Positions 7,780-52,063 of a stretch of DNA of 64,000 nucleotides are shown piece by piece. This stretch comes from Deltaproteobacteria bacterium (lineage in GTDB: Bacteria; Myxococcota_A; Polyangia; JAAYKL01), in the NCBI GenBank assembly GCA_016937015.1, contig JAFGWT010000273.1, positions 22,878 to 86,877 on the forward strand. Reading direction: 5' to 3'. The notes under the pieces were generated by a model. That model made no database searches. It worked only from the letters and a program-made list of their open reading frames with translations, and was not told where the DNA came from. Both the position numbers and the translations under genes were made by a program. The number at the start of each line of letters is the position of its first letter. The stretch's first letter is position 1.

Positions 7780-7786
7780 CACAATT

Positions 7787-34328: not shown

Positions 34329-37300
34329 ATGAATCGAATAGGTGTTATATTCAGTCTGCTCTTCTCCCTCTTCGTTCCGGCATATGGGCATACCCATTCA
34401 AAAGCGCTTTCCGCTCTGCAGCGCCAGCCCGATTCGCGGTTTGCAGACTTGCTTGTGTTGCAGATTTTTGACGAATATGCCACGTCAGGAAGAGTCGTTA
34501 TTGAAGCGGAGCTGAATGCAGCACTGAGTCTAAAAAGGCTTGATTGGGCAGCAAGGGACCGTGTCCTCTATCTGTTGGCACAACTGAAAATGATGTCGGG
34601 GGATTACAACACAGCCAACCGGATGTTTGCCGAATTGGGATTTATCACGGACTGGACAATTGTTGGACCGTTCCCACATGAATCCGGTTCAGGAATTACC
34701 GACACGCTTTCGATTAACAGTGAAGACAGCTCCACAACGCCATTAAACCTGCAGGTTGCCCCGAACTGCGTCCCGTCTCTGTCTCGCGGTCCCTGTCAGT
34801 TTTCGACCAGCTGGATGAGCCACAGCATGGGACGAATCAGTTTCGAGCCACTGTTTTCGCCCTCGTCAAACATCTGTACACTGGCGCAAACAACTGTACA
34901 CGTTGACAATGCTGGCGTGCATCAACTGGTTTTTGGCGCTGGAGGGCAGAGTCAAGTCACAGTTGACACAAAAATTGTCCTCACTGACACAAGTGAGTAT
35001 GACGCGGATATTAACCGCCATGCACTGCAGATACCGCTCGAAAAAGGGGCTCACACACTGACAGTTAAGATCTGCAGCGGTGAATCTGGCAGAGCCGGAT
35101 TTTATGCACGTCTGATTGCGCCGGAGGGCCGACCACTGCATTCAGCGAAAGCCAGTCCGTTTGAACCCGTTTCAATGGCAACTCCCGTAAACGCGCCTAA
35201 TAAGTCACCACTTAAGAAAATGACGCCAAGTGAAAAGAGCCGTCTCGCGCATTTGGGATTTTTCGCTCAGTATGCCAAGCATACCGGCGCTGTTGGGAAA
35301 GACACAACTGTATTCGATGCCGCCAGAGCGGCATGTACGTCACTGAAAACCGTTTCATTTTGCAAAACATTTGCCGAATTGTCGGGCGACATCAATACAA
35401 AGCTTCAAGCATGGCGAAACGTTCTTTCCGCCACACCGGAAAACAGGGAAGCAAAACTGGCGATACTGTTACTTCGCGCGCGACACCAGCTTGATTCAGA
35501 TGCTGCTTATGCCCTTCAGGAACTGGCAACTGCAAAAGATGCAGACATCAATTCTCGTTGTGCCCTTCTCGAATATTTCACAATGAATCTTCCACAGACG
35601 GCGCAGCATTTGCGAGTGGCGCATATGGATGATGCCGACATATTGCCTGGAGAGATTCGGTGCATCGCAGACAATCTGAAAGGTATTCCTGTGGACCTGC
35701 ACACGGCTGCACTTTTAGACATGGCGCTGCGGATTGATTTTACGGATTATGATTATCAAATACGCCGAATGAATATGCATGGCCGCACCCTTGAAAACGA
35801 GCTTCCCAAAGTGGCGGCTGCGTGGAAGGGACTTGGCGCGCCACCTGTGCACGGGGTTCGGGCACTCATTGAACTCGCCCGCGGCGCTGGCCTCAACCGA
35901 CTGGCATCCGACCTCGCCAAAGATACACGCCTTTATGCTCCTGCTGTGAGTCTGTATCGCCAGGATGCGGGTAAAGCAGCCCTTTTTACCGATCAGTCCA
36001 TGGGGATAAGCCTGTTAAAGGAAGCATTGGCTCAGTCCCCTCAGAATAAGTCACTAAGAGACTACATCGCGCACATCGAACCCCAACGCAGTTTTGAATC
36101 AGCGTATATTGTGCCCCCGTCAGATTTTTTAAACAACAAACAAAAATGCATATCTCAAAAGACAGATTGTTACCTGGTGAACAACACCATGGTTCGGGTG
36201 CATGAAAACGGCCTTGCATCGTCAGTCTCTCAAATAGTTGTTGCCATCGCTTCTGCAGAGGGAACACGTCAATGGCAGCAATACAGTGAGCAGTTTTCAT
36301 CTAATCAAACAATCCAGGTTCTGGGTGCGCGAATTTATCGTGCAGATGGCAAAGTGGAGCAGGCAACGGGACAGGCCACGTTCCCCGTATCGGAACCATG
36401 GTATCGCCTGTACTACGATATAGAAGCAGAAGTGGTTGAGCTACCCAGCCCTGAAGTGGGTGACGTTGTCGAATTTCAATTTCGAATTGACGATATTGGC
36501 AGCGAGAACATGTTTGGCGAATACTTTGGCACAATCGTTCCAATCAACGCCGAACTTCCGGTCGAATCGTTTCAACTGGTTATCATGCGCCCCAAATCGC
36601 TTCCGCTTCAGTTTGAATCCAGCAAGGCGGTTCGACGCGACGAATGGATTGAAAATGAAACGGTCACCACCGTGTTCAGTGATAAAGGAATTAAAGCAAT
36701 TCCCGACGAACCTGCAGCACCTGGTGCGATGTCGCTGGTCCAGTATGTGCATGCCACCACTTGGACATCGTGGGCCAAAATGGAAGCGTGGTATCGCGCA
36801 CTTATTAAGCCCCAGTTAAGACACGATGCCGAATTAAAAGAACGTGTGTTGGCGCTTACGCACGGGGCAAAATCCAGGCAGGAAAAAATTGCTGCTATTT
36901 ATAACTGGGTTACAACAAATATCCGCTACGTTGGGCTGGAATTTGGAATTCATGGCTATAAGCCATACAGCACCACACAGGTGCTGACCAGGGGTTTTGG
37001 CGACTGTAAAGACACAGCATCGCTCATCGTCACAATGTTAAATGAAGCGGGAATCGACGCACATGTGGCATTGGTCCGAACCCGAACAGCCGGGGAATTG
37101 AATACTCGTTTTCCGTCGCTCGCATTGTTTAACCATGCGATTGCATATGTTCCGGAATTTGATCTTTGGCTGGACGGCACTGCAACATTTCACGGCACAA
37201 CGGATATGCCGTTCGAAGACCAGGGTATCAACGCCCTGGTGATTGGGCTGGCACCGATGTTACCCAGACAAACCAAAACTCTGAGGCCAGAAGACGCCAC

Positions 37301-37934
37301 GTTTGTGCAACACGATGTAATATCGCCAAACCCGGATGGCAGCGCAGCTATCGCGAGCACAGTTACCGCTTCCGGATCCCCTTTTGCGCCATGGCTGAGA
37401 AGCACATTTGCATCTGCGCAACGACAGGATATACTGGAAAACCATTTTTCTGACATGTATTCCGCTGTTACAATAGACCATGCTGACTTTACAGAATTTA
37501 GCCCATTGTCCCCCTCCCCTGTCATAACATTTCAAGGAAACATCCCATCACTTTTTATATTAAAAAGGGGTATTGCGACATTCCGTGCAGCGCCGCCCCT
37601 GAATCTGAAGCAGAAATTCGCCCCCATTGCTAAACGGCAGCATGCGCTGCAAATTGGCCCGGCTCGAAAAGCAACCTACACGGTCCGATATCTGTTGCCG
37701 GCTGGATTTGTTTCAACAACTGAGCCATCCGTCGCGTCAGTTCACACAAAATTTGGTACATATCAACGGGAAATCCAATCCGAAACAAATTGCATCACGG
37801 TGTCGCGTACCTTCGAGATCAATCAACCCCTTGTGCCTGCGTCGCAATATGGTGAATTTGTCAAATTCACTCGTGATGTGGACGTACTCGAAAAAGCGCA
37901 GATTTCAATAAAACAACAGGAGATCACACCGTAA
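34329..37934 (+). CDS. Large secreted multidomain protein with transglutaminase-like cysteine-protease-fold domain (Cys-His-Asp present) and DUF3857-like architecture
   Basis: Signal peptide MNRIGVIFSLLFSLFVPAYG; TGase core GFGDCKDTASLIVTMLNEAGIDAHVALV..FNHAIAYV..WLDGTA. Confidence 0.6.
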   Translation: MNRIGVIFSLLFSLFVPAYGHTHSKALSALQRQPDSRFADLLVLQIFDEYATSGRVVIEAELNAALSLKRLDWAARDRVLYLLAQLKMMSGDYNTANRMFAELGFITDWTIVGPFPHESGSGITDTLSINSEDSSTTPLNLQVAPNCVPSLSRGPCQFSTSWMSHSMGRISFEPLFSPSSNICTLAQTTVHVDNAGVHQLVFGAGGQSQVTVDTKIVLTDTSEYDADINRHALQIPLEKGAHTLTVKICSGESGRAGFYARLIAPEGRPLHSAKASPFEPVSMATPVNAPNKSPLKKMTPSEKSRLAHLGFFAQYAKHTGAVGKDTTVFDAARAACTSLKTVSFCKTFAELSGDINTKLQAWRNVLSATPENREAKLAILLLRARHQLDSDAAYALQELATAKDADINSRCALLEYFTMNLPQTAQHLRVAHMDDADILPGEIRCIADNLKGIPVDLHTAALLDMALRIDFTDYDYQIRRMNMHGRTLENELPKVAAAWKGLGAPPVHGVRALIELARGAGLNRLASDLAKDTRLYAPAVSLYRQDAGKAALFTDQSMGISLLKEALAQSPQNKSLRDYIAHIEPQRSFESAYIVPPSDFLNNKQKCISQKTDCYLVNNTMVRVHENGLASSVSQIVVAIASAEGTRQWQQYSEQFSSNQTIQVLGARIYRADGKVEQATGQATFPVSEPWYRLYYDIEAEVVELPSPEVGDVVEFQFRIDDIGSENMFGEYFGTIVPINAELPVESFQLVIMRPKSLPLQFESSKAVRRDEWIENETVTTVFSDKGIKAIPDEPAAPGAMSLVQYVHATTWTSWAKMEAWYRALIKPQLRHDAELKERVLALTHGAKSRQEKIAAIYNWVTTNIRYVGLEFGIHGYKPYSTTQVLTRGFGDCKDTASLIVTMLNEAGIDAHVALVRTRTAGELNTRFPSLALFNHAIAYVPEFDLWLDGTATFHGTTDMPFEDQGINALVIGLAPMLPRQTKTLRPEDATFVQHDVISPNPDGSAAIASTVTASGSPFAPWLRSTFASAQRQDILENHFSDMYSAVTIDHADFTEFSPLSPSPVITFQGNIPSLFILKRGIATFRAAPPLNLKQKFAPIAKRQHALQIGPARKATYTVRYLLPAGFVSTTEPSVASVHTKFGTYQREIQSETNCITVSRTFEINQPLVPASQYGEFVKFTRDVDVLEKAQISIKQQEITP

Positions 37935-40900
37935 TGAGCAATCTTCCCCAATGGGCTAATTCCGCGCGAGTGATGGCTCTAATATTCTTTGTGCTGGGGT
38001 GTGCCGCCGCTCATTCTCCTGCACACAAAACAGAAACATTAAGCGAAAACCGGACTTTTCTTTCTGCGCCAACAATACCACAGCTGGAGAAGCAATTTAA
38101 GTCCAGCAACCGTGAAGGCGATCTGTTTGTTTTGGCCACTCTTTACGACAAGACTGGTCGCCCTGAATTGGCTTTCAACACATATATTCAGGCAATGGAT
38201 GCAGCCAGTATATCCCCCGGACTTTACTGGGAAGGCATAGGTGCAGCCATTGGCATTGTCAATATCCGGCGCCGGGTAAGGGACTTTGAAAACAGGATTT
38301 ACCCGCATCTCATGAAATGGTCGGCTTCCCCCGGTGCGCTTGCGCCGGAAGCGTTGTATCAGTTACGCACGCTAACGTTCTCCTTCGCACTAAAAAAAGG
38401 AAAGATGAAGCACGCCAGCCAATTGCTGAATCAAACCGGTTGCATCACAGATTGGCTGGTCGCCGGCCCCATCGCGACCGACAAGCGCGGCGCAATTAGC
38501 AGCAAACAGCTTCTGGATTCACGCGTGTGGCCGAGGGAAATTGACGCGGGTGCCGGCCGTCCAAATATGCCTGTGGTTCATAAATCGCTTGGAATCTGCC
38601 AATTGACTGCGCCCCCGGTATCCTCTGCCAGTACAGGCACAATCATTGGCACAACAGCAATACATGTTTCATCGACGGGAGATGCCAGTTTCAGACTGCA
38701 TTCAACATCTGATTCAAAAATTTTTATTAACGGCCATCAGGTGTATTCCCAGCAGAGTCAGACACGTTGGCTTCCGGAAACCCGTTGGTTTACCGTATGG
38801 CTTCCCGCAGGCCACCACCAGATTACCGTGCAGGTATTTTCACCCACTTTTGAACCATCTTTTTCGTTGAGCGTATTGTCATCCAGTCAACGCCCACTGA
38901 CTAACAACAGCACAACCCTGCCAGTGACTACAGAATACAAACCCAATAAAGGCATTACACGCATTGATTCAAAGATGACGGGTGAGTCAACCATTCTGGC
39001 GAGAATGCAATATGCGCTTTGGAACGTGGATCCATACGAGTGGCAAGAATATGCAAAAATGCTCGATGAGAAGTTGCCGCTGCACCGGTTATTCATCGCG
39101 GCGTATCAGCTGATGACTCCGTTCAACGCGCCCGAGGTTGCCATGGAAAGCGCCAGACATCTCTACGCTGGCGTGTTATCAAAAATGCCTACTGCGTTCG
39201 AAGCGTCGGTTTATCTGGCCAAACAGGCGCACAGCAACGGCCGCACCGAAGAATCGATTGGCATGCTTAAAAACGCAATCGCCGCGATGCCTGATGAGCC
39301 AATGCTGCCACTGGTGCTTACTGAAATTGCGTTTGAAAAGGAATGGATACCCGAAACGAGAAAATACCTCTCAATGGCAACCGATATGCTCGGTGACAAC
39401 TGCGAAACCCTGCAATGGAGATATGCTGTTGCGTTGCATGAAAAAAAATTTGATGCGACAATGCAGCTTGCTCACTCAATCAGCCAATGCGCCGCATCAT
39501 CCACTGATTTGGCCACAGAACTCACCAGAGAGGGAGATTTTATGGGCGCCTCAAATATTTTGTGGCGACAGGCCAAACGGCAGCCCAATTCGATGTCGGC
39601 ACAATTAGATGCAGCGCTGAGTTTTGCCCGTTCCGGTGCCCCGGATAGAGGCATCGAATTATTAGAGATTACCCACAGGCAATTTCCACTTTCCAACACG
39701 CCAGTTTTACACCTGATTGACGCGTATCTTGCTTCCAACAAAACTGAGAAGGCACAGGTACTATGCCACCTACAGCACCGAATGCCATCTGATCCTCAAA
39801 CACTCCTTGCGTGTGAGTCGGTCGAACTGACAAACCCGCTTGGTATGTATCGGGTGGATGGACTGAAAACGGTCAATCAGTTTATCAAGAGAGATGACAA
39901 ACCGAAATCGGACTTTTCATGGGTACTGGATCGGACAGTTTACGCGGTTGACAGGTTTGGCACAGGTAATCAATTGGTGCACTCGATTGGATACATCAAT
40001 TCACAGGATGCGGTCTCCGAGTACGGCGAGTTGAGTATTCCTTACGGATCAAAAGTTTTGCAGGCGCGTGTCATCAAACCATCGCTTGAGCAGTTTTATC
40101 CAACACTGGTCGAAGGTAAACCGGGGCTATCGCTGCCCAATCTGGCCGTCGGCGATTTTGTCGAATTGGAAACAATAAGTGCCATTCCTGCGCATTCTGT
40201 ATTTCCAGGCGGGTTCGACACCGAGCCCTTTTATTTCCGGGACTTTAATTCGGCATTCGTAAGATCGGAACTGATAGTCGTTGCGCCTGAATCGTTTAAT
40301 CTGCAATTCGATACACGAGGCGCCGCTCCTCCACCTGTCCATCATTCACTGAACGGAATGCAGGTCGTCACTTTTCGAACCAGAGACCAGCATCCGTTGC
40401 GAATTGAACCGGACACACCGGATGCCCGGGAGTTTTTACCTTCAGTGCGCATTACAGCCCACGCGTCCATTGAATCGGTATGTCAAAATATTAACGAACA
40501 GTTGTATGCGATGTCACAATGGTGTCCGGAGATTGACCAGACGATAACTCGCAGCATCGTCAAACAAAACAATCGCGACGCAAAAATCGAGGCGATATAC
40601 AATTGGATCTCTTTAAACATTGAGGATGACATGATACTGTTTGAGCCTGCCGCCCATGTACTAAGCCGAAAAAGAGGTAGTCGTGCCCGGCTGTTTATAC
40701 AAATGCTCGCACAGGCAAATATCGATGCAGAACTGGGGTTGGCAATGACTGCGTTCGATGACCATACACCCGCTACCGTTGCTGATGTGAACCGCTATAC
40801 GGTTCCTGTGGTTAAATTGCCGAACGGTAAATGGATCAGTTTTCAGGAACGACATGCTCCTTTAGGGACCTTACCTTCGGAGTTGCGACATCAGCCGGTT

Positions 40901-41590
40901 TTGCTGCCCAAAAATTGCCGTATTGAAAAGACAGATGCGGGCACTGTCCCATTTGAAAGTTCCACTGTTACCGCCGAACTAAACATTGATCAACAGGGGA
41001 ACGCAACAGGAACAGTAACCGAACTGATTGAAGGCGATACCGCAGCCATACTTCGGTCGCTACTGGAGAGTCCCGAATCCGAACACCGGAAGCTTTTCGA
41101 GGAACATTTACTGTCGGCTCTTTTCCCGGATGCAGTGCTCACAGCATTTTCCGTGGAAAACACGCGCGAGGTTCAACTACCACTCAAAATAGTATACAAT
41201 GTAGCCGTTTCACAGATCATCAAACAGGCCAATAATGTCGCACGCATGTTCGTTCCTATGCCAGTCAGTTTTGAACAGTTCACCAATGGCATTGCCAGTC
41301 GTGAATTGCCACTTGTATTGGCAACATATCTAAAAAACAGCCGTAAAATACATTTAAACCTGCCGTCCAATATGATCATTCAACAGCTGCCCGAAAATCA
41401 CTGTGAACAATCAGCCAACACCGTCGCGAGCTATTGTATGCAATTCAAATCCTCAGAAGACTCAATATACATAGATATGGAAGCCATTATTAATATCCAG
41501 CGAATCCCGGCCAGACACTACACGGATTTTCAGAATTTCATACTGACAACCAAACAAATGAACAGTTCATCTATTGATATCCAATACTAA
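37934..41590 (+). CDS. Paralogous large lipoprotein with degenerate (Cys-less) transglutaminase-like domain
   Basis: Lipobox FFVLGCAAA; N-terminal region homologous to upstream gene (G(F/C)ITDW.(V/A)GP); TGase position reads KRGSRARLFIQMLAQANIDAELGLA (no Cys/His); start overlaps upstream stop (TAATG). Confidence 0.6.
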   Translation: MSNLPQWANSARVMALIFFVLGCAAAHSPAHKTETLSENRTFLSAPTIPQLEKQFKSSNREGDLFVLATLYDKTGRPELAFNTYIQAMDAASISPGLYWEGIGAAIGIVNIRRRVRDFENRIYPHLMKWSASPGALAPEALYQLRTLTFSFALKKGKMKHASQLLNQTGCITDWLVAGPIATDKRGAISSKQLLDSRVWPREIDAGAGRPNMPVVHKSLGICQLTAPPVSSASTGTIIGTTAIHVSSTGDASFRLHSTSDSKIFINGHQVYSQQSQTRWLPETRWFTVWLPAGHHQITVQVFSPTFEPSFSLSVLSSSQRPLTNNSTTLPVTTEYKPNKGITRIDSKMTGESTILARMQYALWNVDPYEWQEYAKMLDEKLPLHRLFIAAYQLMTPFNAPEVAMESARHLYAGVLSKMPTAFEASVYLAKQAHSNGRTEESIGMLKNAIAAMPDEPMLPLVLTEIAFEKEWIPETRKYLSMATDMLGDNCETLQWRYAVALHEKKFDATMQLAHSISQCAASSTDLATELTREGDFMGASNILWRQAKRQPNSMSAQLDAALSFARSGAPDRGIELLEITHRQFPLSNTPVLHLIDAYLASNKTEKAQVLCHLQHRMPSDPQTLLACESVELTNPLGMYRVDGLKTVNQFIKRDDKPKSDFSWVLDRTVYAVDRFGTGNQLVHSIGYINSQDAVSEYGELSIPYGSKVLQARVIKPSLEQFYPTLVEGKPGLSLPNLAVGDFVELETISAIPAHSVFPGGFDTEPFYFRDFNSAFVRSELIVVAPESFNLQFDTRGAAPPPVHHSLNGMQVVTFRTRDQHPLRIEPDTPDAREFLPSVRITAHASIESVCQNINEQLYAMSQWCPEIDQTITRSIVKQNNRDAKIEAIYNWISLNIEDDMILFEPAAHVLSRKRGSRARLFIQMLAQANIDAELGLAMTAFDDHTPATVADVNRYTVPVVKLPNGKWISFQERHAPLGTLPSELRHQPVLLPKNCRIEKTDAGTVPFESSTVTAELNIDQQGNATGTVTELIEGDTAAILRSLLESPESEHRKLFEEHLLSALFPDAVLTAFSVENTREVQLPLKIVYNVAVSQIIKQANNVARMFVPMPVSFEQFTNGIASRELPLVLATYLKNSRKIHLNLPSNMIIQQLPENHCEQSANTVASYCMQFKSSEDSIYIDMEAIINIQRIPARHYTDFQNFILTTKQMNSSSIDIQY

Positions 41591-41668
41591 TCTCCTGCAA
41601 TTTCAATAAAAAAGTATGCCAACAATTTGACTCTATGCTCTCCTGTTCAGTAGTATTGCTTACACTTA

Positions 41669-41684
41669 CTGCACCAAATAACAG
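41669..41684 (+). promoter_or_regulatory. Candidate SOS/LexA-type operator CTGC-N8-ACAG (TACTGCACCAAATAACAGGT) upstream of the LexA-family gene
   Basis: One mismatch to CTGT-N8-ACAG, 28 nt upstream of the start codon; the box consensus is lineage-specific, so this is a weak call. Confidence 0.25.
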
Positions 41685-41711
41685 GTTGTTGACCGTGGAG
41701 GAAACTTTCAT

Positions 41712-42335
41712 ATGCAAGGACTGACAAAAAGACAGGAAAAAGTGCTCGATTACATCACCAGCTCAATTACGGAACGCGGTTATCCGCCTACGTTGAGGGA
41801 GATTGGGCGCCATATGGGAATTCGATCAACGAATGGGGTCAACGACCACCTGCGTGCTTTGGAGCGCAAAGGATATTTAAAACGCGAAGATATGAAATCC
41901 CGCGCACTCAGACCTGTAAACATGGAAGACAAAAAGCAGTCCGATACGGTCAAAATTCCAGTTGTAGGCCGTGTCGCCGCGGGCCAGCCTGTGCTGTCAG
42001 AGCAGAACATTGAAGACTACGTTACAGTCGATCGTTTTCTTATCGGTAATACAAAAGAAGTTTTTGGGATGTGGGTTCACGGTGATGCCATGTTGCAGGC
42101 GGGAATACACAACGGCGATTTTATTTTTGTAAAAAAACAGATGTTCGCCGAAAAAGGTGATGTCGTGGTTGCATTGCTTGGTGATAACGCCGCAGTTCGT
42201 TATTATCATCCGGAGCGTGACCATATTCGCTTTGTACCAGCCAACACCAATTGCGCGCCAATCATGGTTCGACGTCAGGATTTCCTGCCCATGCAGCTAC
42301 TGGGTGTCGTTACCGGCATTTACAGACGCCTGTAG
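41712..42335 (+). CDS. lexA: LexA-family repressor with both catalytic dyad residues substituted (Ser->Ala, Lys->Arg)
   Basis: LexA wHTH N-domain (LTKRQEKVLDYI..GYPPTLREIG..), linker with VVGRVAAGQP (Ala-Gly site kept), S24 domain; aligned to E. coli LexA GMSM->GDAM and VTVKRL->AAVRYY. Confidence 0.8.
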   Translation: MQGLTKRQEKVLDYITSSITERGYPPTLREIGRHMGIRSTNGVNDHLRALERKGYLKREDMKSRALRPVNMEDKKQSDTVKIPVVGRVAAGQPVLSEQNIEDYVTVDRFLIGNTKEVFGMWVHGDAMLQAGIHNGDFIFVKKQMFAEKGDVVVALLGDNAAVRYYHPERDHIRFVPANTNCAPIMVRRQDFLPMQLLGVVTGIYRRL

Positions 42336-42371
42336 TCGCTTACGTCTCTGCAACTCACCAAAAAAATAATA

Positions 42372-43493
42372 TCAGAGTCTCTCTCTTGTTTCGAAAATCG
42401 CTGCGTATATGTTTGCGATGTCTGAACTGGTCAAAGCAACCGGGTGGTTTTTCAATCGTTCGATGTTCACCTGTTCCATTAAACGCATCATCTGTGTCCC
42501 GGAGATGTTGAATCGCATCTCTCCCAAAACCCGGCGGTATGCGTCGAGCATACATTTTTGAAAGGCCATAAAACCCGCAACAAAATCACTGCCCCATGGC
42601 ATCAACACTTTATCAAGCGCTGCCGAACTGTCTCTAAAGAAGCCATATTTTTGCGCCATAAGCTGTATCAGCGGCCCCATCACCAGCAGCACAGCGATCC
42701 CATGAGGTATTCCCAGCTCAGCAGTAAGACCGTAGCTCAGTGCATGTCCCGCAGTTGTTTTGGTAATATTTATGGCTTTGCCAGCCAAATTCGCAGCCCG
42801 GAGCAAATTCTGCCTCGCTGCATGGTGCGCTGGAGTCGTCAGAACAAGCGTTAAATTGTCAGGAATTATCTGCAAGGCCGACAGGGCGTATGACCGTGAC
42901 GTATCGGTGGCCTTCGGTGACCAGAATGACTCAATCGATTGACAAAACGCATCCACGCCACTTGCGATGGTCACCGACGGTGGACATGTAATGGTAAGGG
43001 ACGCATCCAGCACCGTCCAGTCAGGAAGCAACGTGTCGTGAGCGACGGAATACTTACGCCCATTCTGGTAAGCAACGGCAAAATGGGTTGCCTCACTACC
43101 GGACCCGGCTGTCGTTGGCGCGACCCAAAATAACGGCCTGTCTTTCCCACGAATCTCATTTCGCAATAAATCAAACGCGGATGTGCCCATTGCGATGGCA
43201 AGCAGCAGTTTCGAGGTGTCGATAACGCTGCCGCCGCCAATTGCAACGATCAAATCGAGCTGCCGCAGCGGAAGTGTTGTCGACAGACTGGCAATGAAGT
43301 CTATGTCGGGATTAGAGGGAATATTGCTGATACAAATCAGATTTTGAATATCAATATCATGCTGTATCGCGGACAGTGCTGCCGCAAAGGCGCGTCCATG
43401 CAAAACAAGGACATTTTTAAAATGCCGTTCAGACGCAGCAGCAAGCATGCGCCGGATAACGCCTTCACCAACTGCATCAGTATCTGCGTTCAT
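42372..43493 (-). CDS. Group III iron-containing alcohol dehydrogenase; putative phosphonoacetaldehyde reductase (FomC/PhpC-like)
   Basis: Fe-ADH motif GGGSVIDTSK; start overlaps upstream stop (ATGA 43490-43493); last gene of the PEP-mutase operon. Confidence 0.6.
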   Translation of the reverse strand: MNADTDAVGEGVIRRMLAAASERHFKNVLVLHGRAFAAALSAIQHDIDIQNLICISNIPSNPDIDFIASLSTTLPLRQLDLIVAIGGGSVIDTSKLLLAIAMGTSAFDLLRNEIRGKDRPLFWVAPTTAGSGSEATHFAVAYQNGRKYSVAHDTLLPDWTVLDASLTITCPPSVTIASGVDAFCQSIESFWSPKATDTSRSYALSALQIIPDNLTLVLTTPAHHAARQNLLRAANLAGKAINITKTTAGHALSYGLTAELGIPHGIAVLLVMGPLIQLMAQKYGFFRDSSAALDKVLMPWGSDFVAGFMAFQKCMLDAYRRVLGEMRFNISGTQMMRLMEQVNIERLKNHPVALTSSDIANIYAAIFETRERL

Positions 43494-44635
43494 TTAATTA
43501 TTTTATCCATAAATGTGTGTTTATTGTCGATTGGCGTTGTGGTTGGACGCCCCAGATCCTCGCGAGCGCCCTTCTTTATCACAAATTCAATAAATGCAGG
43601 GCCCTGCTTCTTCCTGATGTCATCCATCGCGGTGTGCAATTCAGTAATGCTCCGGACGGTCACCGTCGACTTGTATCCACAGGCACTGGCAATTGATGCG
43701 AACGAAATTTGCCTGCCAATGGTGGGCTGCCCCCCAACCGAATCATGTGCGCCGTTATTCAGTACAAAATGCAAAAATGACGATGGGGCGTATTGCGCAA
43801 TCAGCGGCAGTGCACCCATGTGCATCAGCACAGCGCCATCGCCGTCAATGCACGCAACGGGGCTATCCTGGTAGCCGGCAATTCCCAATGCAATCATTCC
43901 GGCATGGCCCATCGATCCCACGGTTAAAAAATCCCGGTGGTGCCCCTGATTCAGCCTCTCTCGTATCTCAAAAATTTCACGGGAAGTCATTCCGGTTGTG
44001 GAGACAATTTTTGTTTTCTCGTTTACCATTGCCAGAATTGATTCCACCGCCTGCTCACGGGTCATCAGTTCGGTTTCGGCCACGTCTGGCACTGCCGTAT
44101 CTGCGCCGGCGACACTGTACTTTCCAAAAGCTCCCTTGGGCACAAGCAATAACACCGGGGTGGACGCTGCCTTCATTTGCCGGGAAAGCCGCTCTATCTG
44201 CAATCGGACTTCATCCGTATTTGACGCCAGTATTTCATGTGGATACCCGATGGCGCTCATTAAATCCATTTGCACTTTTCCCTGTTTTACATGTTGCGGT
44301 TCGTCTTTTATCCCCGGCGCGCCGCGCCAGCCAATCATTACAAGCATGGGGATACTGTATACATCCGGATCAGCCAGAGACAATAACGGGTTAATCGCAT
44401 TTCCAATGCCTGAATTCTGCATGTAAACCAGTCCCGACTCTCCCGTTGCCAGGTGGTACCCTGTCGCTAAACCAATCGCCGCGCCCTCATTGGCTGCGAT
44501 AATGTGCTGCCGCTCTGGAAATTGATCCGTAACGCAGGCGCAGAATTCCTTTAACAGGGAATCCGGCACTCCCGTAAAAAAGCTGAAGCCGCTGGCCTTA
44601 AGTAGATTAACAAAACTGGACGGATCTAGCATCAT
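43490..44635 (-). CDS. ppd: ThDP-dependent phosphonopyruvate decarboxylase
   Basis: N-terminal [13 protein letters not shown]; ThDP-binding GDGA..NN ([31 protein letters not shown]); coupled to neighbours by ATGA overlaps. Confidence 0.7.
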
Positions 44636-45933
44636 GCCCCTCCCAGCGGAATCAGCTCAAGAATTTCCCTGATGGGCAGCAATCCGGATCTCGCCTCGTA
44701 AGCCCGCTGATGAGTCAGTATACTGCGAGCGGTTTGCATCATGGCCGGGTATGCGCTGCGTATAAGCTGGTTTGCGTAAATGATCACATTGGCCCCTGCT
44801 CTTGAGAGCTCGTCTTCGTAAATGGTGTCATATGTTGTCGGCACAACAACAACTGGCACTTTGCGACTGAAATTTCGATAAGCATCAAGAAATGCGAGGA
44901 TCTCATCGGGAGTCTCCTGTTTGGAATGAATCATTATGCCATCCGCACCGGCAGCAATATAGCTCCTGGCCCGTAACAGCGCATCGTCAATCCCCTGTTT
45001 GAGAATCAGGCTTTCGATTCGCGCGATAATCATAAAGTCATCGCTTACCTGGGCGCGCTTCCCCGCAGCAATTTTCTGTGTAAAATGCTCAATACTATCC
45101 TGATTTTGTGGCACTTCCAGCCCATACAGGGAATTTCTTTTAAGACCTATTTTATCTTCAATAATGACAGCGGACACACCCAGTCGCTCCAGCGTGCGGA
45201 CCGTAAAAATAAAGTGTTCGGTTTTTCCCCCGGTATCGCCATCGAAGATGATGGGTTTGGTGGTCACTTCAAGCAGATCGTTAATATTGGTTAACCGTGC
45301 TGAAATATCGACTGCTTCTATATCGGGCTTTCCTTTTGCGGTGGAATCTGTCAGGCTGGATGCCCACATTGCATCAAATTCGCGACGTTTGCCATTGACT
45401 TCCACATACGTCTCCTCAACGATGCGACCGGTTAGCCCGCTATGCGCCTCAATAACGCGAACCACTTCTTTTGCCTGAATGAGCCGCCGCAACCGCAATC
45501 GACGAACGTCGGGACTGATGCCAACTTCACGGATAGCCTTGTTTAATTGCGTGGAGGAAATACCTGTAGTGTATGAAAGCTCAACAAGCTGCCCCCCCCA
45601 TTGCTGCAGAGTATCGATAACCTGCTGCCGGGTTTCCTTCTGAACCCCCTCTTTCCAGTCATCGCCATGAACCACAAAGTCCGGACGAAGTTGTTCAAGA
45701 TTAGGACGGTAATCCAGAGTCTCCTGCGCAACAACACGGCTTACACCTTTTAATCCCTCAACCACTGCTTTCCGCTGTTCAAATTCCAGATACGGCAGGC
45801 GTTTGTAACTTGCGATGGCTCTGTCTGTCAGCAGACCGACCGTTAATTCCCCAAGTTTCGCTGCTTCCCTGATGATATTCATGTGACCGGGATGCACTAA
45901 ATCGGCACTCATCCCTACATACACGGTTTTCAT
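44632..45933 (-). CDS. Bifunctional TagD-like cytidylyltransferase / phosphoenolpyruvate phosphomutase (Fom1-like fusion)
   Basis: Residues 1-135 align to glycerol-3-phosphate cytidylyltransferase ([32 protein letters not shown]); residues ~140-433 are PEP mutase ([40 protein letters not shown]). Confidence 0.8.
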
Positions 45934-46033
45934 AAGATTTATTCCTTCGTTAAATTACGCTGTCGACAAACGTCACTCAAAACATGAAAAAAATGATACT
46001 ATTTCGCTTTTATGCGGCTGTCTATAAAGAGTG

Positions 46034-46048
46034 TCTGCAGCCTGCAGA
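46034..46048. promoter_or_regulatory. Perfect 7-1-7 palindrome TCTGCAGcCTGCAGA in the divergent intergenic region of the phosphonate locus (candidate operator)
   Basis: Read directly; lies midway in the 277-bp region between the divergently transcribed operons. Confidence 0.25.
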
Positions 46049-46210
46049 ATATCTTTCTGAATTTGAGCGCAACAAGGCCACATGAACCCCGGCAATCACG
46101 CACAGACAGCGACGATATTTGTTTCATTTTTGTGACAATTATTGTAAGCAACAACGACCGATTTTCCTGAGCCAAACAGAAAGACAACCTTCAACCAAGA
46201 TCATTGAATC

Positions 46211-49200
46211 ATGTCTGATTTTTTTTATACCGTTTTTATCTATCCATTGGAATTTCTGATGAAGTGTGTGATGGAAACGGTTCTGAATAATACGGGAGAC
46301 CCCATTCTTTCTCTCGTTGCTGTAAGCGCGTTTGTTTCAATTGGGTCATTACCGCTGTATCACATTGCCGAGAAATGGCAGGACAACGAACGGGCCATTC
46401 AGGAAAAGCTTCAACCCAAAATAAGAGAATTTAAAAGCGTATTCAAAGGCGCCAGCCTCAACGCTTATATTCAAACGCTGTATCGACAAAACGAGTATCA
46501 TCCGGTAATGGCGATTCGTGCTGTATTGGGGATACTGATTCAGATTCCCTTCTTCATCGCCGCTTACCATTTGCTATCCGAATATCCGGCATTCGAGGGC
46601 GTTTCCGCTATATTTTTTAACGATCTGGGTCGCCCGGATGGTTTGATCAAACTTGGAAGTTTAAGTATCAATGTGCTTCCTTTCCTGATGACTGGCGTCA
46701 ATATTCTGTCCGCAGTGATTTACGGCAAGAAACTTGGGACAAAGGAAAAAATTCAAACATATGGCATCGCCGGCGTATTTCTTGTGGCGTTGTATTCATC
46801 GCCGGCATCTCTTCTCTTTTACTGGACATCAAACAACATTTTCAGTCTGGCCAAAAATGGCATATATCGACTGATTTATCCTGACGGAAGAATTAAATCC
46901 ACGCAGCAGAATGAAACACGGATCTGGCCAATATTTCTTCGGATTTCCGCGTTGCGCCCCTCGACATGGGGACAGATAACTCTGTTTGTTTTAACGCTGG
47001 CGCTGTATCTCATTGCGCCGGAATTCACAAAGCCTAACTCTGAAACACAGGGACAGCTTTATGGCCTGATCTACACCGTGTTGCTAATGCTGGGCGGATT
47101 GACGATCGCTGGCGCGCTGGCCAATAAAACAATGCGACGCAGCGCCAGAAATACGACTGCCGCGGTTTATGGCATCGTTGTTCTTATTTCATTGGGACTG
47201 CAACTGGTATGGATGCTGAATGTGGTGCCGGACGTTAAATTCACCCAATACGCCGCCAATAGCCTGTTCGCTTTAATGTTTTTTAACGGCGCGCGCAGTG
47301 TTTTCGCTCTCTGGTCCAACTGGATAGCAAAAAACGAACTTGAAGTCACCACACGCCCCGGGACGCTGTTTGCGCTTGCCGTGCTGACCCTCCTGACCAC
47401 AATTTTTATTGCTGTCCCGTTGCCGCTTGTTTCAACCGCCAGTGTTGGTGATTTCGAAAAATCGCTTTCTTATTATCTATTTTTTATGCTGATGCTGGTT
47501 GTTTCCTTTTTTATACTCAGCTGCGTTGTGTATTCGTATCTGTCCAGAGCATCCCGTAGCCTCCTTATCTACATCATCAGTTTCCTTGCAATCCTGTCAC
47601 TGGTCAATGCCTTCGTGTTTGCAGGCGAATACGGTGATATGAGCAATTTCAATTTCGAAAATGGTCTGCCGGAAGAACCCGTCGCCAAAATCGTAAATAT
47701 GTTTGTACTCATCATCATTGGCGGCGGACTCATTCTGCTGTTTCTCAAACGTTTGTACAAATGGCTGTTGCCAGTGTGGATCATATGCCTGCTGTCAATC
47801 GGTGTTGTGACTGTCAGCGAAAGCCATCGGTTTTACCAAAAGAGTCAAAAGATATCCCTTAAGTTCGCGCAGGCTTCGCAGCTTGACAAGCAATTTGTTT
47901 TTTCGAGGACGCAGCCAAATGTTCTGGTGATCATGCTTGACCGATTTGTTGGAGGTATGGTGCCCAAAGCATTTGAGCTGGCGCCGGTGTTAAAGAGTCA
48001 GTTTGAAGGATTCACGTGGTATCCGCAATATTTTTCCGATGGTGCATTCACCATTTTAGGGGTGCCTTCGCTGATGGGGGGATGGGAATATCATACAAAA
48101 GAAGTGCAATATACGCGCACGACAATGCCACTCAAACAGAAGCTGGACGAGTCTGCCAGAGTACTGCCATACAATTTCAACAAAGCCGGTTATCAAACAA
48201 CCGTTTTTGCCGATCTTGAGGCATACTTTGATCCCGAAAACAGGAAATACATTGAGCGAACAAAATTTGCGTCATTGAAAGCCCAATACAAGGACCTTTG
48301 GCTGCAGGAGCATCAAAAAAAACTCAAAGAAGATAATGTCAGAGGAAAGCTGGCTATCTTTGGACTTTTCCGAACAGCTCCACCGATATTGCGAAACTAT
48401 ATTTACGACAATGGTGACTGGTTACTCGGTTCGAAGGCAAAAAACACTGACATGGGAAACAAAAGCATCATAGGGGACAAACAGGTATCATTCCTGACAA
48501 CAAATGATGCGCAGATAAATCGTGCTGTTGAAGGGTTCAGCACGCTATACTTTTTGCCTCGCCTGTCAGCAACATCCGACAAAGCGCATAAACAGTTTTA
48601 CTATTTCTCAAATGCATTCACCCACGAACCGGTTATAGCGAACGCGAATTTTGACTTGTCTGTTCACGAGCGAATTTTCTACCCAAGGGATGTGTACGAC
48701 GAGTTTGATGAAAGTATGTATACACTGCAGCATCTGTACACCGACACAACCGCCCTTGTGGCGATTGGAAAATGGTTCGAGTGGATGAAGCAGAACGATG
48801 TATACGACAACACAAAAATAATAGTGGTTTCCGATCATGGCAGAAATGTTTACGATCCTGTTTTAAAATCTCAGAAAATCATCAGTTCACTCAACGCTAA
48901 AAAGCCCGATGCGTCATGGTTTCATGGTTTACTCATGGTGAAGGATTTTGGGCAAAAAGGGGCCATGCGAAAAAGCAATCAGTTTCTCACGACGTGTGAT
49001 GTTCCGTGGCTGACCATGAAAGACATTGTCACCAATCCAATCAACCCGACATCGAAAAAGAAAATCGTGTTCAACGCAGACAGGTATCCATTCTCCATGT
49101 TTTTCACGCCACCGATGATCTGGCAGCAGACAAAATATAAATACAAGGTGAAAGATATTTTCGAGATTCAGCGTAAAAATGATGTCCTGGATCCGGCGAA

Positions 49201-49225
49201 ATGGAAGCGCGTTAATGTTAAATAG
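46211..49225 (+). CDS. Fusion membrane protein: N-terminal YidC/Oxa1-family insertase core (5 TM), additional TM region, C-terminal sulfatase/LtaS-like (alkaline-phosphatase superfamily) extracytoplasmic domain
   Basis: Residues ~3-225 align to the YidC core (LPLYHIAEKW..LQPKIREF..LYRQNEYHP..LIQIPFFIAAYHLL..FFNDL..VLPFLMTGVNIL..LLFYWTSNNIFSLAKNGIYR); C-terminal VLVIMLDRF..FTILGVPSLMGG..IIVVSDHG matches the LtaS/EptA/sulfatase fold without a CxPxR sulfatase motif. Confidence 0.65.
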   Translation: MSDFFYTVFIYPLEFLMKCVMETVLNNTGDPILSLVAVSAFVSIGSLPLYHIAEKWQDNERAIQEKLQPKIREFKSVFKGASLNAYIQTLYRQNEYHPVMAIRAVLGILIQIPFFIAAYHLLSEYPAFEGVSAIFFNDLGRPDGLIKLGSLSINVLPFLMTGVNILSAVIYGKKLGTKEKIQTYGIAGVFLVALYSSPASLLFYWTSNNIFSLAKNGIYRLIYPDGRIKSTQQNETRIWPIFLRISALRPSTWGQITLFVLTLALYLIAPEFTKPNSETQGQLYGLIYTVLLMLGGLTIAGALANKTMRRSARNTTAAVYGIVVLISLGLQLVWMLNVVPDVKFTQYAANSLFALMFFNGARSVFALWSNWIAKNELEVTTRPGTLFALAVLTLLTTIFIAVPLPLVSTASVGDFEKSLSYYLFFMLMLVVSFFILSCVVYSYLSRASRSLLIYIISFLAILSLVNAFVFAGEYGDMSNFNFENGLPEEPVAKIVNMFVLIIIGGGLILLFLKRLYKWLLPVWIICLLSIGVVTVSESHRFYQKSQKISLKFAQASQLDKQFVFSRTQPNVLVIMLDRFVGGMVPKAFELAPVLKSQFEGFTWYPQYFSDGAFTILGVPSLMGGWEYHTKEVQYTRTTMPLKQKLDESARVLPYNFNKAGYQTTVFADLEAYFDPENRKYIERTKFASLKAQYKDLWLQEHQKKLKEDNVRGKLAIFGLFRTAPPILRNYIYDNGDWLLGSKAKNTDMGNKSIIGDKQVSFLTTNDAQINRAVEGFSTLYFLPRLSATSDKAHKQFYYFSNAFTHEPVIANANFDLSVHERIFYPRDVYDEFDESMYTLQHLYTDTTALVAIGKWFEWMKQNDVYDNTKIIVVSDHGRNVYDPVLKSQKIISSLNAKKPDASWFHGLLMVKDFGQKGAMRKSNQFLTTCDVPWLTMKDIVTNPINPTSKKKIVFNADRYPFSMFFTPPMIWQQTKYKYKVKDIFEIQRKNDVLDPAKWKRVNVK

Positions 49226-50477
49226 CATCCTGTTATATTTGGATCCCGGTTCCGGAAGTATGTTGCTCTCGGCGGTGGCGGGCATTATTGCAACGCTCTA
49301 TTTCCTGATAAAAGGGGTATTCTTCAAGTTGCTCAATATGCCCGCATATCTGTCGGGAAAAAGAACAAAATCGGCTATCAAAGACAAAATTGTGTTTTAT
49401 TCAGAGGGCGGCCAGTACTGGAACGTTTTCAAGCCCATTATTGAAGAACTGAATCACCGCGAAATATCCTGCCTCTACCTTACAAGCAAAGAGAACGACG
49501 AAGGTCTTTCGTGCGGACTTGATCACGTTAAAACGAAGTATATTGGCGAGGGAAACAAAGCCTATTTCGTTCTCAATACGCTCAGTGCGGAACTGCTAAT
49601 CATGACCACGCCGGGAGTTGATGTTTTGCAAATCAAACGCAGCAGAGGTGTAAGGAAATACGTACACATAACCCATTCGGCCGGTGGTTGCAGCGGATAT
49701 GCCACCTATGGTGTAGACTATTACGATGTGGTCCTGACAGGAGGAACCGGCGACAAGGCAATGATTGAGGATTTGGAACGCGCTCGCGGCACTCACAAAA
49801 AAGATATTAGAATCATCGGATGCACATATCTTGATGTTCTCAGAAAAAAACTGCGTGAAACCGATGCTGAGCTTTATTTTGAGCGCGTTCGACCCACCAT
49901 TATGCTGTCGCCCACGTGGGGATTGCACGGGTTGCTCAGAAAATCCGGTGAAACTATTTTAAAACAGCTCACTTTGCTCGACAGGTACAATATAATTGTC
50001 AGACCGCACCCCCAGGCGTTTATTTCAGATAAAGATGTAATGGAAAAACTTACGGCACTGTTTCCCGACAGTGAAACCTTACGGTGGGATAACGCGCCTG
50101 ATGGCCTGAATTCAATGCGCCAGTCCGATATGATGATTAGCGATTTTTCAGGGGTTCTGTTTGATTACATTTTCCTTTTTGAAAAGCCGGTGCTGTCATT
50201 TAAAGGACATTATGACAAAAGAGGCCACGACTCGATGGACCTCAGCGATGACCCATGGAATCTGCGCATGCTTGAAAAAACAGGCCTCTCAATTAGCCAC
50301 GATGATCTGAGCACATTGCCCGACATTGTGGAGAATCAGCTCAAAGGGGGCACAGCGATAAGCACCTTTCTCGATGAACTGCGTGATGGGATGGACAAAT
50401 ATCCCGACCTTTCCGGTATTCGCGGCGCAGACGCTGTTGAGTCACTCCTCATGGCAAACGATGCGCAAATTTCCTGA
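49179..50477 (+). CDS. TagB/TagF-type CDP-alcohol phosphotransferase (Glyphos_transf family)-like protein
   Basis: LSPTWG..(TagF YAPTWR-like), IVRPHPQ, MMISDFSGVLFDYIFL (TagF ITDYSSV.FD-like); start overlaps upstream gene (49179 or 49215). Confidence 0.7.
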   Translation: MMSWIRRNGSALMLNSILLYLDPGSGSMLLSAVAGIIATLYFLIKGVFFKLLNMPAYLSGKRTKSAIKDKIVFYSEGGQYWNVFKPIIEELNHREISCLYLTSKENDEGLSCGLDHVKTKYIGEGNKAYFVLNTLSAELLIMTTPGVDVLQIKRSRGVRKYVHITHSAGGCSGYATYGVDYYDVVLTGGTGDKAMIEDLERARGTHKKDIRIIGCTYLDVLRKKLRETDAELYFERVRPTIMLSPTWGLHGLLRKSGETILKQLTLLDRYNIIVRPHPQAFISDKDVMEKLTALFPDSETLRWDNAPDGLNSMRQSDMMISDFSGVLFDYIFLFEKPVLSFKGHYDKRGHDSMDLSDDPWNLRMLEKTGLSISHDDLSTLPDIVENQLKGGTAISTFLDELRDGMDKYPDLSGIRGADAVESLLMANDAQIS

Positions 50478-50660
50478 CTGTTGTTTCGAATATCAGCAGG
50501 CACGACACAAGCCGCGCATTGCAGAACGACCGGCGAGAAAAGTTTTACTCCCTCAGCACAAAAAAAAATGATTTCGAGATTGACTGAATCCGCTTGAACT
50601 GAAAATATGCCACCCTCGTGATTCTATGGATGTTCAACCTATTATTTAAAGGAGAGTGCC

Positions 50661-51530
50661 ATGTATAAAGTAATCGTAGCGAGTGCTGTTACCCTGCTGC
50701 TTGTTGCATGCAATAAACCATGCCCCGAATGCAAACAGGAAGAGCCTCAAAAAGTGGAAGTTACCAAAAAAGAACTGAAAGATCTCAACGATAAGTTAAA
50801 TTATTCAGTGGGTTACGACGTCGGTCGCTCCGCCGCCCGAAACCAGATGGAACTCAAGGACGAAATATTCCTCAAAGGCGTAAAAGACGGCATGAACGAC
50901 GAAGAAAATCCCGAAGCCGCACTCATGGATGATAAAGAGCGCATTGAAACCAAGCGTGAGCACTCCAAAATCAGAAGAGAAGAAGAGCGCAAGCAACGGG
51001 AAGTCGAAGCGGTTGAGAATAAAAAGAAAGCCGATGCCTTCATGGCTGAAAACAAAAGCAAGGAAGGCGTAATCACCACCGAAACGGGTCTCCAGTACAT
51101 CATCGAAAAAGAGGGTGATGGTCCCAAACCCGCCATGGAAGACAGAGTGTCGGTTCACTACAAGGGGACACTCATTGATGGTACAGAGTTCGACAGTTCC
51201 TACAAACGCAACCGCCCGGCAACGTTCCCGGTGGGCCGTGTTGTCAAAGGCTGGACCGAAGCGCTCCAGCTGATGCCTGTAGGATCCAAATGGAAGCTGT
51301 TTATCCCACCGGATTTGGGATATGGCGAACGCGGCGCTGGCTCAAAAATCGGTCCCAACAGCGCATTGATTTTCGAGATTGAACTGCTTGAAATCATCAG
51401 TGGCGAAGAAACTGCCCCGGGGGCCCCAGCGGCATCCGGAAAACCAGCCCCCCCCAAACCGGCTGCAAAAAAATCGCCAGTTGCACCAGCCCCGGCGGCA
51501 GCCGCTGCTCAGCCTGCTGCTGCTGAATAG
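50661..51530 (+). CDS. FKBP-type peptidyl-prolyl cis-trans isomerase lipoprotein (FkpA/Mip-like) with Ala/Pro-rich C-terminal tail
   Basis: Lipobox LLVAC; FKBP core [52 protein letters not shown]. Confidence 0.8.
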
Positions 51531-51667
51531 CAACAGAGATTACTGAATTTCCCGTATCCATCTCCCATTTTTTCCCTGAAAAACCAAATCTGCCGTTGCA
51601 AAACAAAAAATATTCTCTATTATCCGCAGGTCTTTGGTCGCACTAACCTGATAAATACCAGCCACTA

Positions 51668-52063
51668 ATGGAGCGAACTCAAATGAAACTAAACTTCGAT
51701 AAACTGGGAAACGGTCTGCTTCCCGCGATTGTGCAGGACTTCGAATCCGGAAAAGTGCTCATGGTCGCGTTTATGAATCAGGAAGCCTTCGACCACACTG
51801 TGAAAACAAAAAAAGCCACTTTCTACTCCCGCTCACGCAACCAGCTCTGGGTCAAAGGCGAGAGTTCCGGAAATATTCAGGAAGTGAAGGAAATATACGT
51901 CGATTGTGACGAAGACACCGTGCTGGTTAAAGTGAATCAGATTGGAAACGCCGCCTGTCATAAAGGATACAATTCCTGCTTCTACCGGAAGCTTGACGAC
52001 AATGGGGCGCTTAACATTGTAGAGGAGCTCGTGTTCGATCCGAGCGAGGTATACAAAAAGTAA
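51668..52063 (+). CDS. hisI: Phosphoribosyl-AMP cyclohydrolase (standalone HisI)
   Basis: [27 protein letters not shown] metal-binding segment; 131 aa. Confidence 0.85.

Follow-up and report, generated by a model that had tools for sequence, protein, structure and literature searches.

A phosphonate island of a deltaproteobacterium combines genes predicted to supply CMP-hydroxyethylphosphonate with a widespread TagF-like/YidC-alkaline phosphatase module

What becomes of a phosphonate once it has been activated with cytidine 5′-monophosphate (CMP) is the question raised by a five-gene island of a Deltaproteobacteria bacterium (Myxococcota_A; GenBank assembly GCA_016937015.1, contig JAFGWT010000273.1). 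The island occupies 42372-50477 of the window, the stretch of 64,000 nucleotides that was analysed (positions 22,878 to 86,877 of the contig). Most bacterial phosphonate genes are thought to serve the decoration of surfaces, and the step in which the CMP-phosphonate is transferred is still open (PMC6697681). The island encodes a cytidylyltransferase (CyTase) fused to a phosphoenolpyruvate (PEP) mutase (Ppm), two further supply enzymes, a TagF-like transferase, and a large membrane protein, here YidC-AP, that joins a YidC-like domain to a domain of the alkaline phosphatase (AP) superfamily. On balance, we lean towards the reading that the island attaches 2-hydroxyethylphosphonate (HEP) to an acceptor of the cell envelope, by means of a relay of TagF-like and YidC-AP proteins that would accept different cargoes. 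The features of the island are:

42372-43493, minus strand: iron-dependent alcohol dehydrogenase (Fe-ADH), Pfam Fe-ADH and ADH_Fe_C
43490-44635, minus strand: phosphonopyruvate decarboxylase (Ppd), Pfam TPP_enzyme_N and TPP_enzyme_C
44632-45933, minus strand: CyT-Ppm fusion, open reading frame (ORF) of 433 aa, PF01467 and PF13714
44632-45492, minus strand: PEP mutase domain of the fusion, aa 148-433 including the stop codon, PF13714
45514-45933, minus strand: Fom1-type cytidylyltransferase domain of the fusion, aa 1-140, PF01467 with HPGH
45934-46210, no strand: divergent intergenic region common to both gene groups, 277 bp, GC content 0.397
46211-46885, plus strand: YidC/Oxa1-like five-helix membrane domain, aa 1-225 of the 1004-aa protein, PF02096
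46886-47875, plus strand: about nine further transmembrane (TM) helices, aa 226-555, joining the YidC-like to the outer domain (AlphaFold2 helices and hydropathy)
47888-49225, plus strand: AP-superfamily (LtaS/EptA/PbgA-like) domain, aa 560-1004, predicted periplasmic, PF00884
49215-50477, plus strand: TagF-like (Glyphos_transf) GT-B phosphotransferase with YLDPGSGS motif and TM anchor, PF04464

The five genes are arranged in two divergent groups, ppm-ppd-adh on the minus strand and the YidC-AP and TagF-like genes on the plus strand. Overlaps of 4 nt join the fusion gene to ppd and ppd to the Fe-ADH gene. A TagF-family gene had been placed at 49179-50477 in an earlier description of this locus (the original prediction), and the family holds, but translation probably begins with the ATG at 49215, since an identical database protein (P0001) has 420 aa and GGAAG lies 8 nt upstream. 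With this start the gene overlaps the stop of the YidC-AP gene by 11 nt. The flanking genes, assigned by Pfam, are lexA and those of an FKBP isomerase, hisI and hisG, which marks the island as self-contained. The identical proteins in the databases belong to a metagenome-assembled genome of a deltaproteobacterium.

Concerning the head group, the fusion of a CyTase and a PEP mutase at 44632-45933 on the minus strand is found as originally predicted. The N-terminus of the protein matches CTP_transf_like PF01467 (residues 9-130, E=9e-14), with HPGH at residues 14-17, and the C-terminus matches PEP_mutase PF13714 (residues 148-406, E=4e-56) and contains the Ppm-specific EDKxxxxxNS motif. The fusion reaches 401.5 bits against NCBIfam PEP_mutase TIGR02320 (equivalog cut-off 319.55), and the solved PEP mutases 5unc and 1m1b match it with E=1e-43 and 1e-40. 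With the CyTase domain of Fom1 (5x3d) that of the island shares 66.7% identity, gap-free over 135 aa (E=1.8e-58), and weaker matches among solved structures are human ECT (2.9e-13) and TagD (6e-8). By sequence comparison this cytidylyltransferase is thus classified as Fom1-type: the TagD/ECT fold proposed earlier stands as a likeness at superfamily level, and the closer analogy to TagD does not. The fusion itself is already known, as had been pointed out. PF01467-Ppm fusions represent 23.6% of all Ppm proteins, and the CyTase of Fom1 makes CMP-HEP in a small-molecule (fosfomycin) pathway (PMC6697681).

The Ppd protein scores 483 bits against NCBIfam TIGR03297 (cut-off 312.5). The Fe-ADH is predicted to convert phosphonoacetaldehyde to HEP, similar to PhpC or FomC, and the CyTase domain is predicted to form CMP-HEP from HEP and CTP. 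An aminotransferase (2-aminoethylphosphonate, AEP, transaminase) is absent from the five genes of the island (Pfam), and the combination of a Fom1-type CyTase, Ppd and Fe-ADH without it leads to CMP-HEP as the predicted product. The island shares with Fom1 the domain order, the HxGH and EDKxxxxxNS motifs and this predicted product. It differs from the Fom1 pathway in that Fom3/Fom4-type tailoring is absent and CMP-HEP would be a donor for transfer, not a transient intermediate. Among the five genes, Pfam detected no Fom3, HEPD or MpnS-type gene, i.e. no other consumer of CMP-HEP.

The TagF-like protein is predicted, from its sequence family, to be a CMP-HEP-dependent HEP transferase. Its ORF scores 34.6 bits against PF04464 Glyphos_transf (cut-off 22.1), and NCBIfam holds no model for it. 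The AlphaFold2 model (predicted local distance difference test, pLDDT, 87.7) shows a GT-B fold, preceded by a helix at the N-terminus. The top PDB match of the model in Foldseek is TagF 3l7k (E=4.6e-10), and TagF-like capsule polymerases also match. At sequence level TagF is matched with E=4e-4, in the C-lobe only. There, the invariant His265 of the RPHPQ motif aligns to TagF His584 (RMH584Y), a residue with a reported role in TagF, and the conserved SDxSG motif, as SDFSG, aligns to TDYSS. H151 and H154 of the N-lobe are also invariant, the sequence alignment to TagF (catalytic His444) covering the C-lobe only. The family possesses an invariant N-terminal YxDPGxGS motif ahead of a TM helix, and the topology deduced from AlphaFold2 and hydropathy puts the TagF-like domain in the cytoplasm. 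Many homologues (e.g. P0003, P0008, P0056, and P0119) carry a signal-peptide-like hydrophobic stretch that ends with AxA or FxA right before YLDPGSGS; this stretch is absent from the window protein and from P0112. With the TagD/TagF system the island shares the GT-B fold of TagF, the His584 equivalent, SDxSG, the CMP-releasing type of donor and the cytidylyltransferase superfamily. It differs in the weak similarity (34.6 bits), the N-terminal anchor motif of its own, the absence of tagD and the predicted phosphonate donor; polymerisation is also unlikely here, given the non-extendable cargo in orthologous loci.

The second gene of the plus-strand group corresponds to the LtaS-type protein that had been noticed in the locus. 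It extends over 46211-49225 and encodes 1004 aa with two Pfam domains, PF02096 60KD_IMP (YidC-like; 71.5 bits, cut-off 35) and PF00884 Sulfatase (34.6 bits, cut-off 25). The AlphaFold2 model (pLDDT 85.6) contains a YidC-like five-helix core, which Foldseek matches to YidC of B. halodurans (3wo7) with a TM-score, normalised to target length, of 0.72 and a root mean square deviation of 3.6. Against NCBIfam TIGR03592 the YidC-like domain scores 67.5 bits, below the cut-off of 84.3. Judged by these scores, the domain is a diverged derivative of YidC: it has the five-helix fold of the YidC/Oxa1 insertases and passes their Pfam cut-off (71.5 vs 35), but misses that of NCBIfam, has the groove arginine replaced and is fused to an enzyme. 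The name under which YidC-AP proteins are listed at NCBI, 'YidC/Oxa1 family membrane protein insertase', is probably misleading.

In the linker helices of YidC-AP we found a conserved periplasmic loop motif, N466/F468/F470/Y474/G475. The AP domain has four invariant residues, D577, H805, D875 and H876, and a fifth, T614, with a conservation of at least 90%, positions that we take to correspond to catalytic residues of LtaS; the CxPxR formylglycine (sulfatase) motif is absent from this domain. The top matches of the AP domain in Foldseek are PbgA 6xlp, EptA 5fgn and LtaP 4uop. Hydropathy and the positive-inside rule give about 14 TM helices with both protein ends outside, so that the AP domain is predicted to be periplasmic. 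The outer domain therefore resembles that of LtaS, EptA/MCR-1, OpgB, BcsG, and PbgA in fold, in the conserved metal and nucleophile set and in its predicted role, the transfer of a phospho-head group from a lipid donor to an acceptor of the envelope. The LtaS/EptA class has a five-helix anchor, whereas YidC-AP has 14 helices of which the first five are YidC-like, and unlike that class its gene is coupled to a cytoplasmic loader dependent on CDP or CMP and to varied cargo cassettes. A YidC-AP profile retrieved 2,255 clusters at 50% identity (E<=1e-30); almost every one of the best 150 has full length, with about 820-1250 aa.

Whether the neighbourhood of these genes is more than chance was addressed with an alignment of TagF-like homologues, with which representative genomes were scanned. 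The scan gave 80 loci, in Treponema, Brachyspira, Sphaerochaeta, Lachnospiraceae, Sutterella, Desulfovibrionaceae, Photobacterium, SAR324, and others, whose genes were then assigned by tblastn, clustering of ORFs and Pfam on cluster representatives. Synteny was counted within 7 kb in those 48 TagF-like loci whose flanks extend 4 kb or more to either side. A YidC-like domain is present near the TagF-like gene in 44 of them, a sulfatase domain in 42, a nucleotidyltransferase cassette in 39 and PEP mutase (PepM) in 14. The tightest conserved partnership is that of the TagF-like gene with the YidC-AP gene, which the original prediction had overlooked. In the closest relative of the window's locus (L002, 59-71% identity) the genes are ordered YidC-AP, TagF-like, CyT-Ppm, Ppd and Fe-ADH, co-directional and overlapping at 7309-14743. 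The single operon of L002, together with the recurrent neighbours, identifies the adjacency in the window as conserved synteny. Besides L002, the five-gene set of the window is repeated in L025, L029, L006, and L077. When contigs were searched with the TagF-like protein of the window itself, the single result was a Logan contig of 2 kb.

The reverse comparison started from the supply side. Metagenome contigs scanned with the fusion protein gave 80 close relatives (63-75% identity), 63 of them in a CyT-Ppm, Ppd and Fe-ADH cassette, and adjacency was counted in 78. Directly beside the HEP cassette a LicD gene was found in 17 of the 78 loci and a Glyphos_transf gene in 29, the latter divided into a canonical subfamily (11), a second subfamily (9) and the YidC-associated subfamily (9). 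Where at least 6 kb of flank were spare, one or the other adjoins the cassette in 33 of 45 loci, so HEP cassettes are routinely paired with LicD or TagF-family transferases. The pairing of CMP-phosphonate supply with a TagF-type gene, as proposed for this locus, is therefore real: it recurs from both sides (14/48 TagF-like loci with PepM, 29/78 HEP cassettes with Glyphos_transf), and the overlapping five-gene operon of L002 speaks against a TagF-like gene that belongs to an unrelated neighbouring operon. At these frequencies it is also common, and not unusual as had been thought. Many of the metagenomic HEP loci are capsule-like, with genes of UpxY/NusG, Wzx, GT2, DegT and a hexapeptide acyltransferase (e.g. 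L099, L113, L115, L116, L128-L132, L144, L145, L148, and L154, where LicD or a canonical Glyphos_transf adjoins); they probably derive from Bacteroidetes of gut metagenomes.

These counts bear on an account in which the two halves of the island are independent, ppm-ppd-adh leading to a soluble phosphonate via transient CMP-HEP, and YidC-AP and the TagF-like protein using another donor such as CDP-glycerol. Divergent transcription fits this account, as does the GC content (0.447 in YidC-AP and 0.466 in the TagF-like gene, 0.50-0.51 in ppm-ppd-adh, 0.491 in the whole window), a gap that suggests separate origins of the halves. Ppm is moreover absent nearby in 34 of the 48 TagF-like/YidC-AP modules, and Fom1 itself acts in a small-molecule pathway (PMC6697681). 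Nonetheless, Pfam found neither small-molecule tailoring genes nor tagD among the five genes, the same set recurs in five other loci, once as a single operon, and most metagenomic HEP cassettes with enough flank stand directly beside LicD or Glyphos_transf. We regard independent halves as improbable.

The composition of the module varies between loci. In L006-L008 the YidC part is a separate ORF of 230 aa and the TagF-like domain heads a protein of 945-1042 aa. For the C-terminal Sulfatase domain of that protein Pfam gave 24.1 bits in L006, just under the 25-bit cut-off, and a marginal match in L008 (E=0.0088); in the TagF-headed protein of L007 Pfam found no Sulfatase domain. In L005 the TagF-like, YidC-like and sulfatase parts are three separate genes. 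At least two full-length YidC-AP paralogues are present in 13 of 56 loci, mostly beside one TagF-like gene, and a second TagF-like gene occurs in only 5 loci. This pattern fits one loader that serves several outer transferases. An example from a cultured organism is L162 of the oral Treponema sp. OMZ 799 (CP051301.1, 1637157-1657865), where two YidC-AP paralogues flank one TagF-like gene; the locus is rich in glycosyltransferase genes (GT2, GT25, and GT4) and has no phosphonate genes nearby.

Two other neighbour families recur beside the module in spirochaete and other loci. The first, c14 (612 aa; L013, L018, L022, L023, L032, L041, and L042), has a weak Wzi-like Pfam match only. The second, c16 (261 aa; L012, L028, L035, L037, L043, and L048), has a representative without Pfam match that lies at a contig start and matches, by tblastn, the sulfatase part of the window's YidC-AP protein; its members are probably truncated C-terminal ends of YidC-AP genes.

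A division of labour other than a relay can be drawn from the same loci. The TagF-like enzyme alone might decorate a lipid-linked glycan on the cytoplasmic face, in the manner of LicD, with YidC-AP serving to insert or anchor it, or else acting as a hydrolase or in editing. There are indeed HEP cassettes that lack a YidC-AP gene and are adjoined by LicD or by members of two other Glyphos_transf subfamilies, the invariant YxDPGxGS tail with its TM helix resembles a client of YidC, and the Treponema loci carry glycosyltransferase and Bac_transf genes for a lipid-linked glycan. The catalytic set of the AP domain is invariant across the family, though, which argues for catalysis. The TagF-like/sulfatase fusion in L006, and marginally in L008, likewise counts against the TagF-like enzyme acting alone, and multiple YidC-AP paralogues fit several outer transferases better than an anchor. 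We judge this alternative unlikely, though less so than independent halves.

Regarding the cargo, the module is found beside several kinds of cassette. The HEP cassette (CyT-Ppm/Ppd/Fe-ADH) is present in the window and in L002, L006, L025, L029, and L077, and an AEP cassette (CyT-Ppm/Ppd/PntC-AEPT) in at least 11 loci. AEP-type loci (L047, L060, L072, L033, L051, and others) possess two cytidylyltransferase domains, one in PF01467-Ppm and one in a PF12804-AEP transaminase. Other cassettes contain an NTP_transf_3-Aminotran_1_2 fusion, a LicC-like gene, LicC with choline kinase, or a TagD-like gene (often with an ATP-binding cassette importer). The NTP_transf_3-Aminotran_1_2 fusion (618 aa) is encoded at L037:1769-3625 and in 11 other loci (e.g. 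L014, L020, L023, L024, L031, L032, L036, and L078-L081); as a guess, its head group may be an amino-alcohol phosphate formed via a CobD-like decarboxylase. A gene similar to octopine/nopaline dehydrogenase adjoins the TagF-like gene in L003 (11161-12282), L054, and L078, and hints at another head-group chemistry.

A neighbour-joining tree of the TagF-like proteins shows the cargo types interspersed. Locus L077 (HEP) is sister to L070 (LicC), L051 (AEP) is sister to a locus with the NTP_transf_3-Aminotran_1_2 fusion, and the window protein groups with L002 (HEP) and L003 (octopine dehydrogenase-like neighbour). We therefore rejected cargo type as defining clades in this tree. A phosphonate-specific TagF-like subfamily was rejected as well, since PepM is present in only 14 of the 48 full-flank loci. 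From these data we infer that the TagF-like and YidC-AP proteins form a general module indifferent to cargo, and that HEP is one of several interchangeable head groups activated with CMP or CDP.

The same distribution bears on a polymeric product, the poly- or oligo-HEP that the original prediction had called conceivable. Either the TagF-like enzyme or the extracellular LtaS-like domain would then polymerise HEP on a lipid or glycan primer, in analogy to poly(glycerol phosphate). After transfer HEP retains a free hydroxyl. The best structural match of the TagF-like protein is a polymerase, with capsule polymerases matching too; enzymes of the LtaS type polymerise, LtaP is among the fold matches of the AP domain, and some loci combine the module with a TagD-like (CDP-glycerol) cassette. 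Chemistry would allow a polymer of HEP, as it would of glycerol phosphate, but the evidence does not favour one. Orthologous modules neighbour cassettes for AEP and, as the genes are annotated, for choline. Neither of these head groups offers a free hydroxyl on which a chain could grow, so transfer of a single head group is likelier than poly(HEP). The interspersion of HEP with LicC (L077/L070) and of AEP with the aminotransferase fusion (L051) in the tree points in the same direction, and the TagF-like protein, with its modest 420 aa, bears only a weak resemblance to polymerases (34.6 bits; E=4e-4 over the C-lobe). Polymerisation by either enzyme is in our view highly doubtful, and poly(HEP) is not supported as the preferred product. 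Least probable is a composite version, a three-component relay of loader, YidC-derived flippase and AP transferase in which, with HEP and TagD-like cassettes, the LtaS-like domain extends a chain, giving poly(HEP) in a Gram-negative envelope.

The relay that we prefer, with transfer of a single head group, would proceed as follows. The Ppm domain would convert PEP to phosphonopyruvate, Ppd would decarboxylate this to phosphonoacetaldehyde, Fe-ADH would reduce the aldehyde to HEP, and the Fom1-type CyTase domain would activate HEP to CMP-HEP; for these four steps the family assignments provide a strong basis. In the fifth step the membrane-anchored cytoplasmic TagF-like enzyme would take CMP-HEP instead of CDP-glycerol, release CMP, and attach a single HEP-phosphonyl group to an acceptor in the membrane, at a hydroxyl of a lipid or of a lipid-linked molecule. 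We infer this use of CMP-HEP from synteny, from the chemistry of the family and from the lack of another consumer in the island. In the sixth step the YidC-derived domain would flip the loaded lipid or dock the anchor of the TagF-like enzyme, and the periplasmic AP domain, with a threonine nucleophile, would move the head group to the final acceptor, by likeness to LtaS, EptA, and OpgB. These three enzymes take their head groups from ordinary membrane phospholipids. For a head group foreign to normal phospholipids, a loader of its own would be needed (in this case the TagF-like enzyme), as would a route across the membrane. Scrambling of lipids has been described for YidC-family insertases (bioRxiv 10.1101/2023.09.01.555937).

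Several observations weigh against this relay. The groove residue Arg72 of YidC 3wo6 aligns to a serine in the YidC-like domain, in a variable column, and as the arginine is not conserved a flippase activity is speculative. No nucleotidyltransferase is present within 7 kb in 9 of the 48 full-flank loci. The best NCBIfam match of the Fe-ADH, TIGR03405 Phn_Fe-ADH, reaches 169 bits, under the 424-bit cut-off of this phosphonate family. Clusters of the AEP type carry a PF01467 domain without Fe-ADH, so homology by itself does not settle which substrate this domain uses. Where the cassette is TagD-like, a lipid donor made for the purpose seems needless, since phosphatidylglycerol is already present. 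In the window itself, the supply and transferase genes are divergent and unlike in GC content (0.50-0.51 vs 0.45-0.47), and a glycan-synthesis gene is absent from the island.

The divergent spacer contains a near-palindrome of 31 nt (46026-46056), AAAGAGTGTCTGCAG C CTGCAGAATATCTTT, which could be a candidate operator for co-regulation of the ppm operon and the YidC-AP gene. Rfam gave no match in the divergent intergenic region 45934-46210. A scan of 41500-51800 for promoters and terminators stayed at chance level (14 vs 13.9 and 14 vs 12.0 in shuffled sequence) and is uninformative on operon boundaries. At 34257-41590 the plus strand carries a tandem pair of paralogous ORFs, the first of 1225 and the second of 1218 aa. 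Both contain DUF3857 and the first also a transglutaminase-core domain, which rules out the RNA polymerase subunits (rpoB and rpoC) that their sizes had suggested.

Among known surface systems, the Pnt/Lic pathways (PntC/LicC with LicD) follow the same logic, in which a small head group is activated by cytidylylation and then transferred to the surface (PMC6697681), and in 17/78 loci it is LicD that stands beside the same HEP cassette instead. The island differs from them in the use of a TagF-family GT-B enzyme and YidC-AP instead of LicD, and in activation by PF01467 instead of PF12804. The only transferases that Rice et al. mention near AEP clusters are LicD-like phosphotransferases or glycosyltransferases. 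Our literature searches returned no paper that links Glyphos_transf/PF04464 or fusions of YidC with sulfatase or LtaS to phosphonates, nor AEP to EptA or LtaS. A TagF-like/YidC-AP module with swappable cargo thus appears to be undescribed.

The module provides a concrete and very widespread candidate machine for the step of CMP-phosphonate transfer. It is hosted by gut and oral spirochaetes, Lachnospiraceae, Sutterella, and Desulfovibrionaceae, and cultured carriers include Treponema parvum ATCC 700773, T. saccharophilum, T. socranskii, Brachyspira pulli, Breznakiella homolactica, and Photobacterium sp. Ph5. Should a relay with chain extension be true, the Gram-negative envelope would contain a teichoic-acid-like polymer with C-P bonds. 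If the reading preferred here is correct, the module would represent a new route for the modification of envelope charge and antigens, a YidC-derived domain would gain a role other than that of an insertase, and the annotation of enzymes of about 900 aa as insertases would be corrected.

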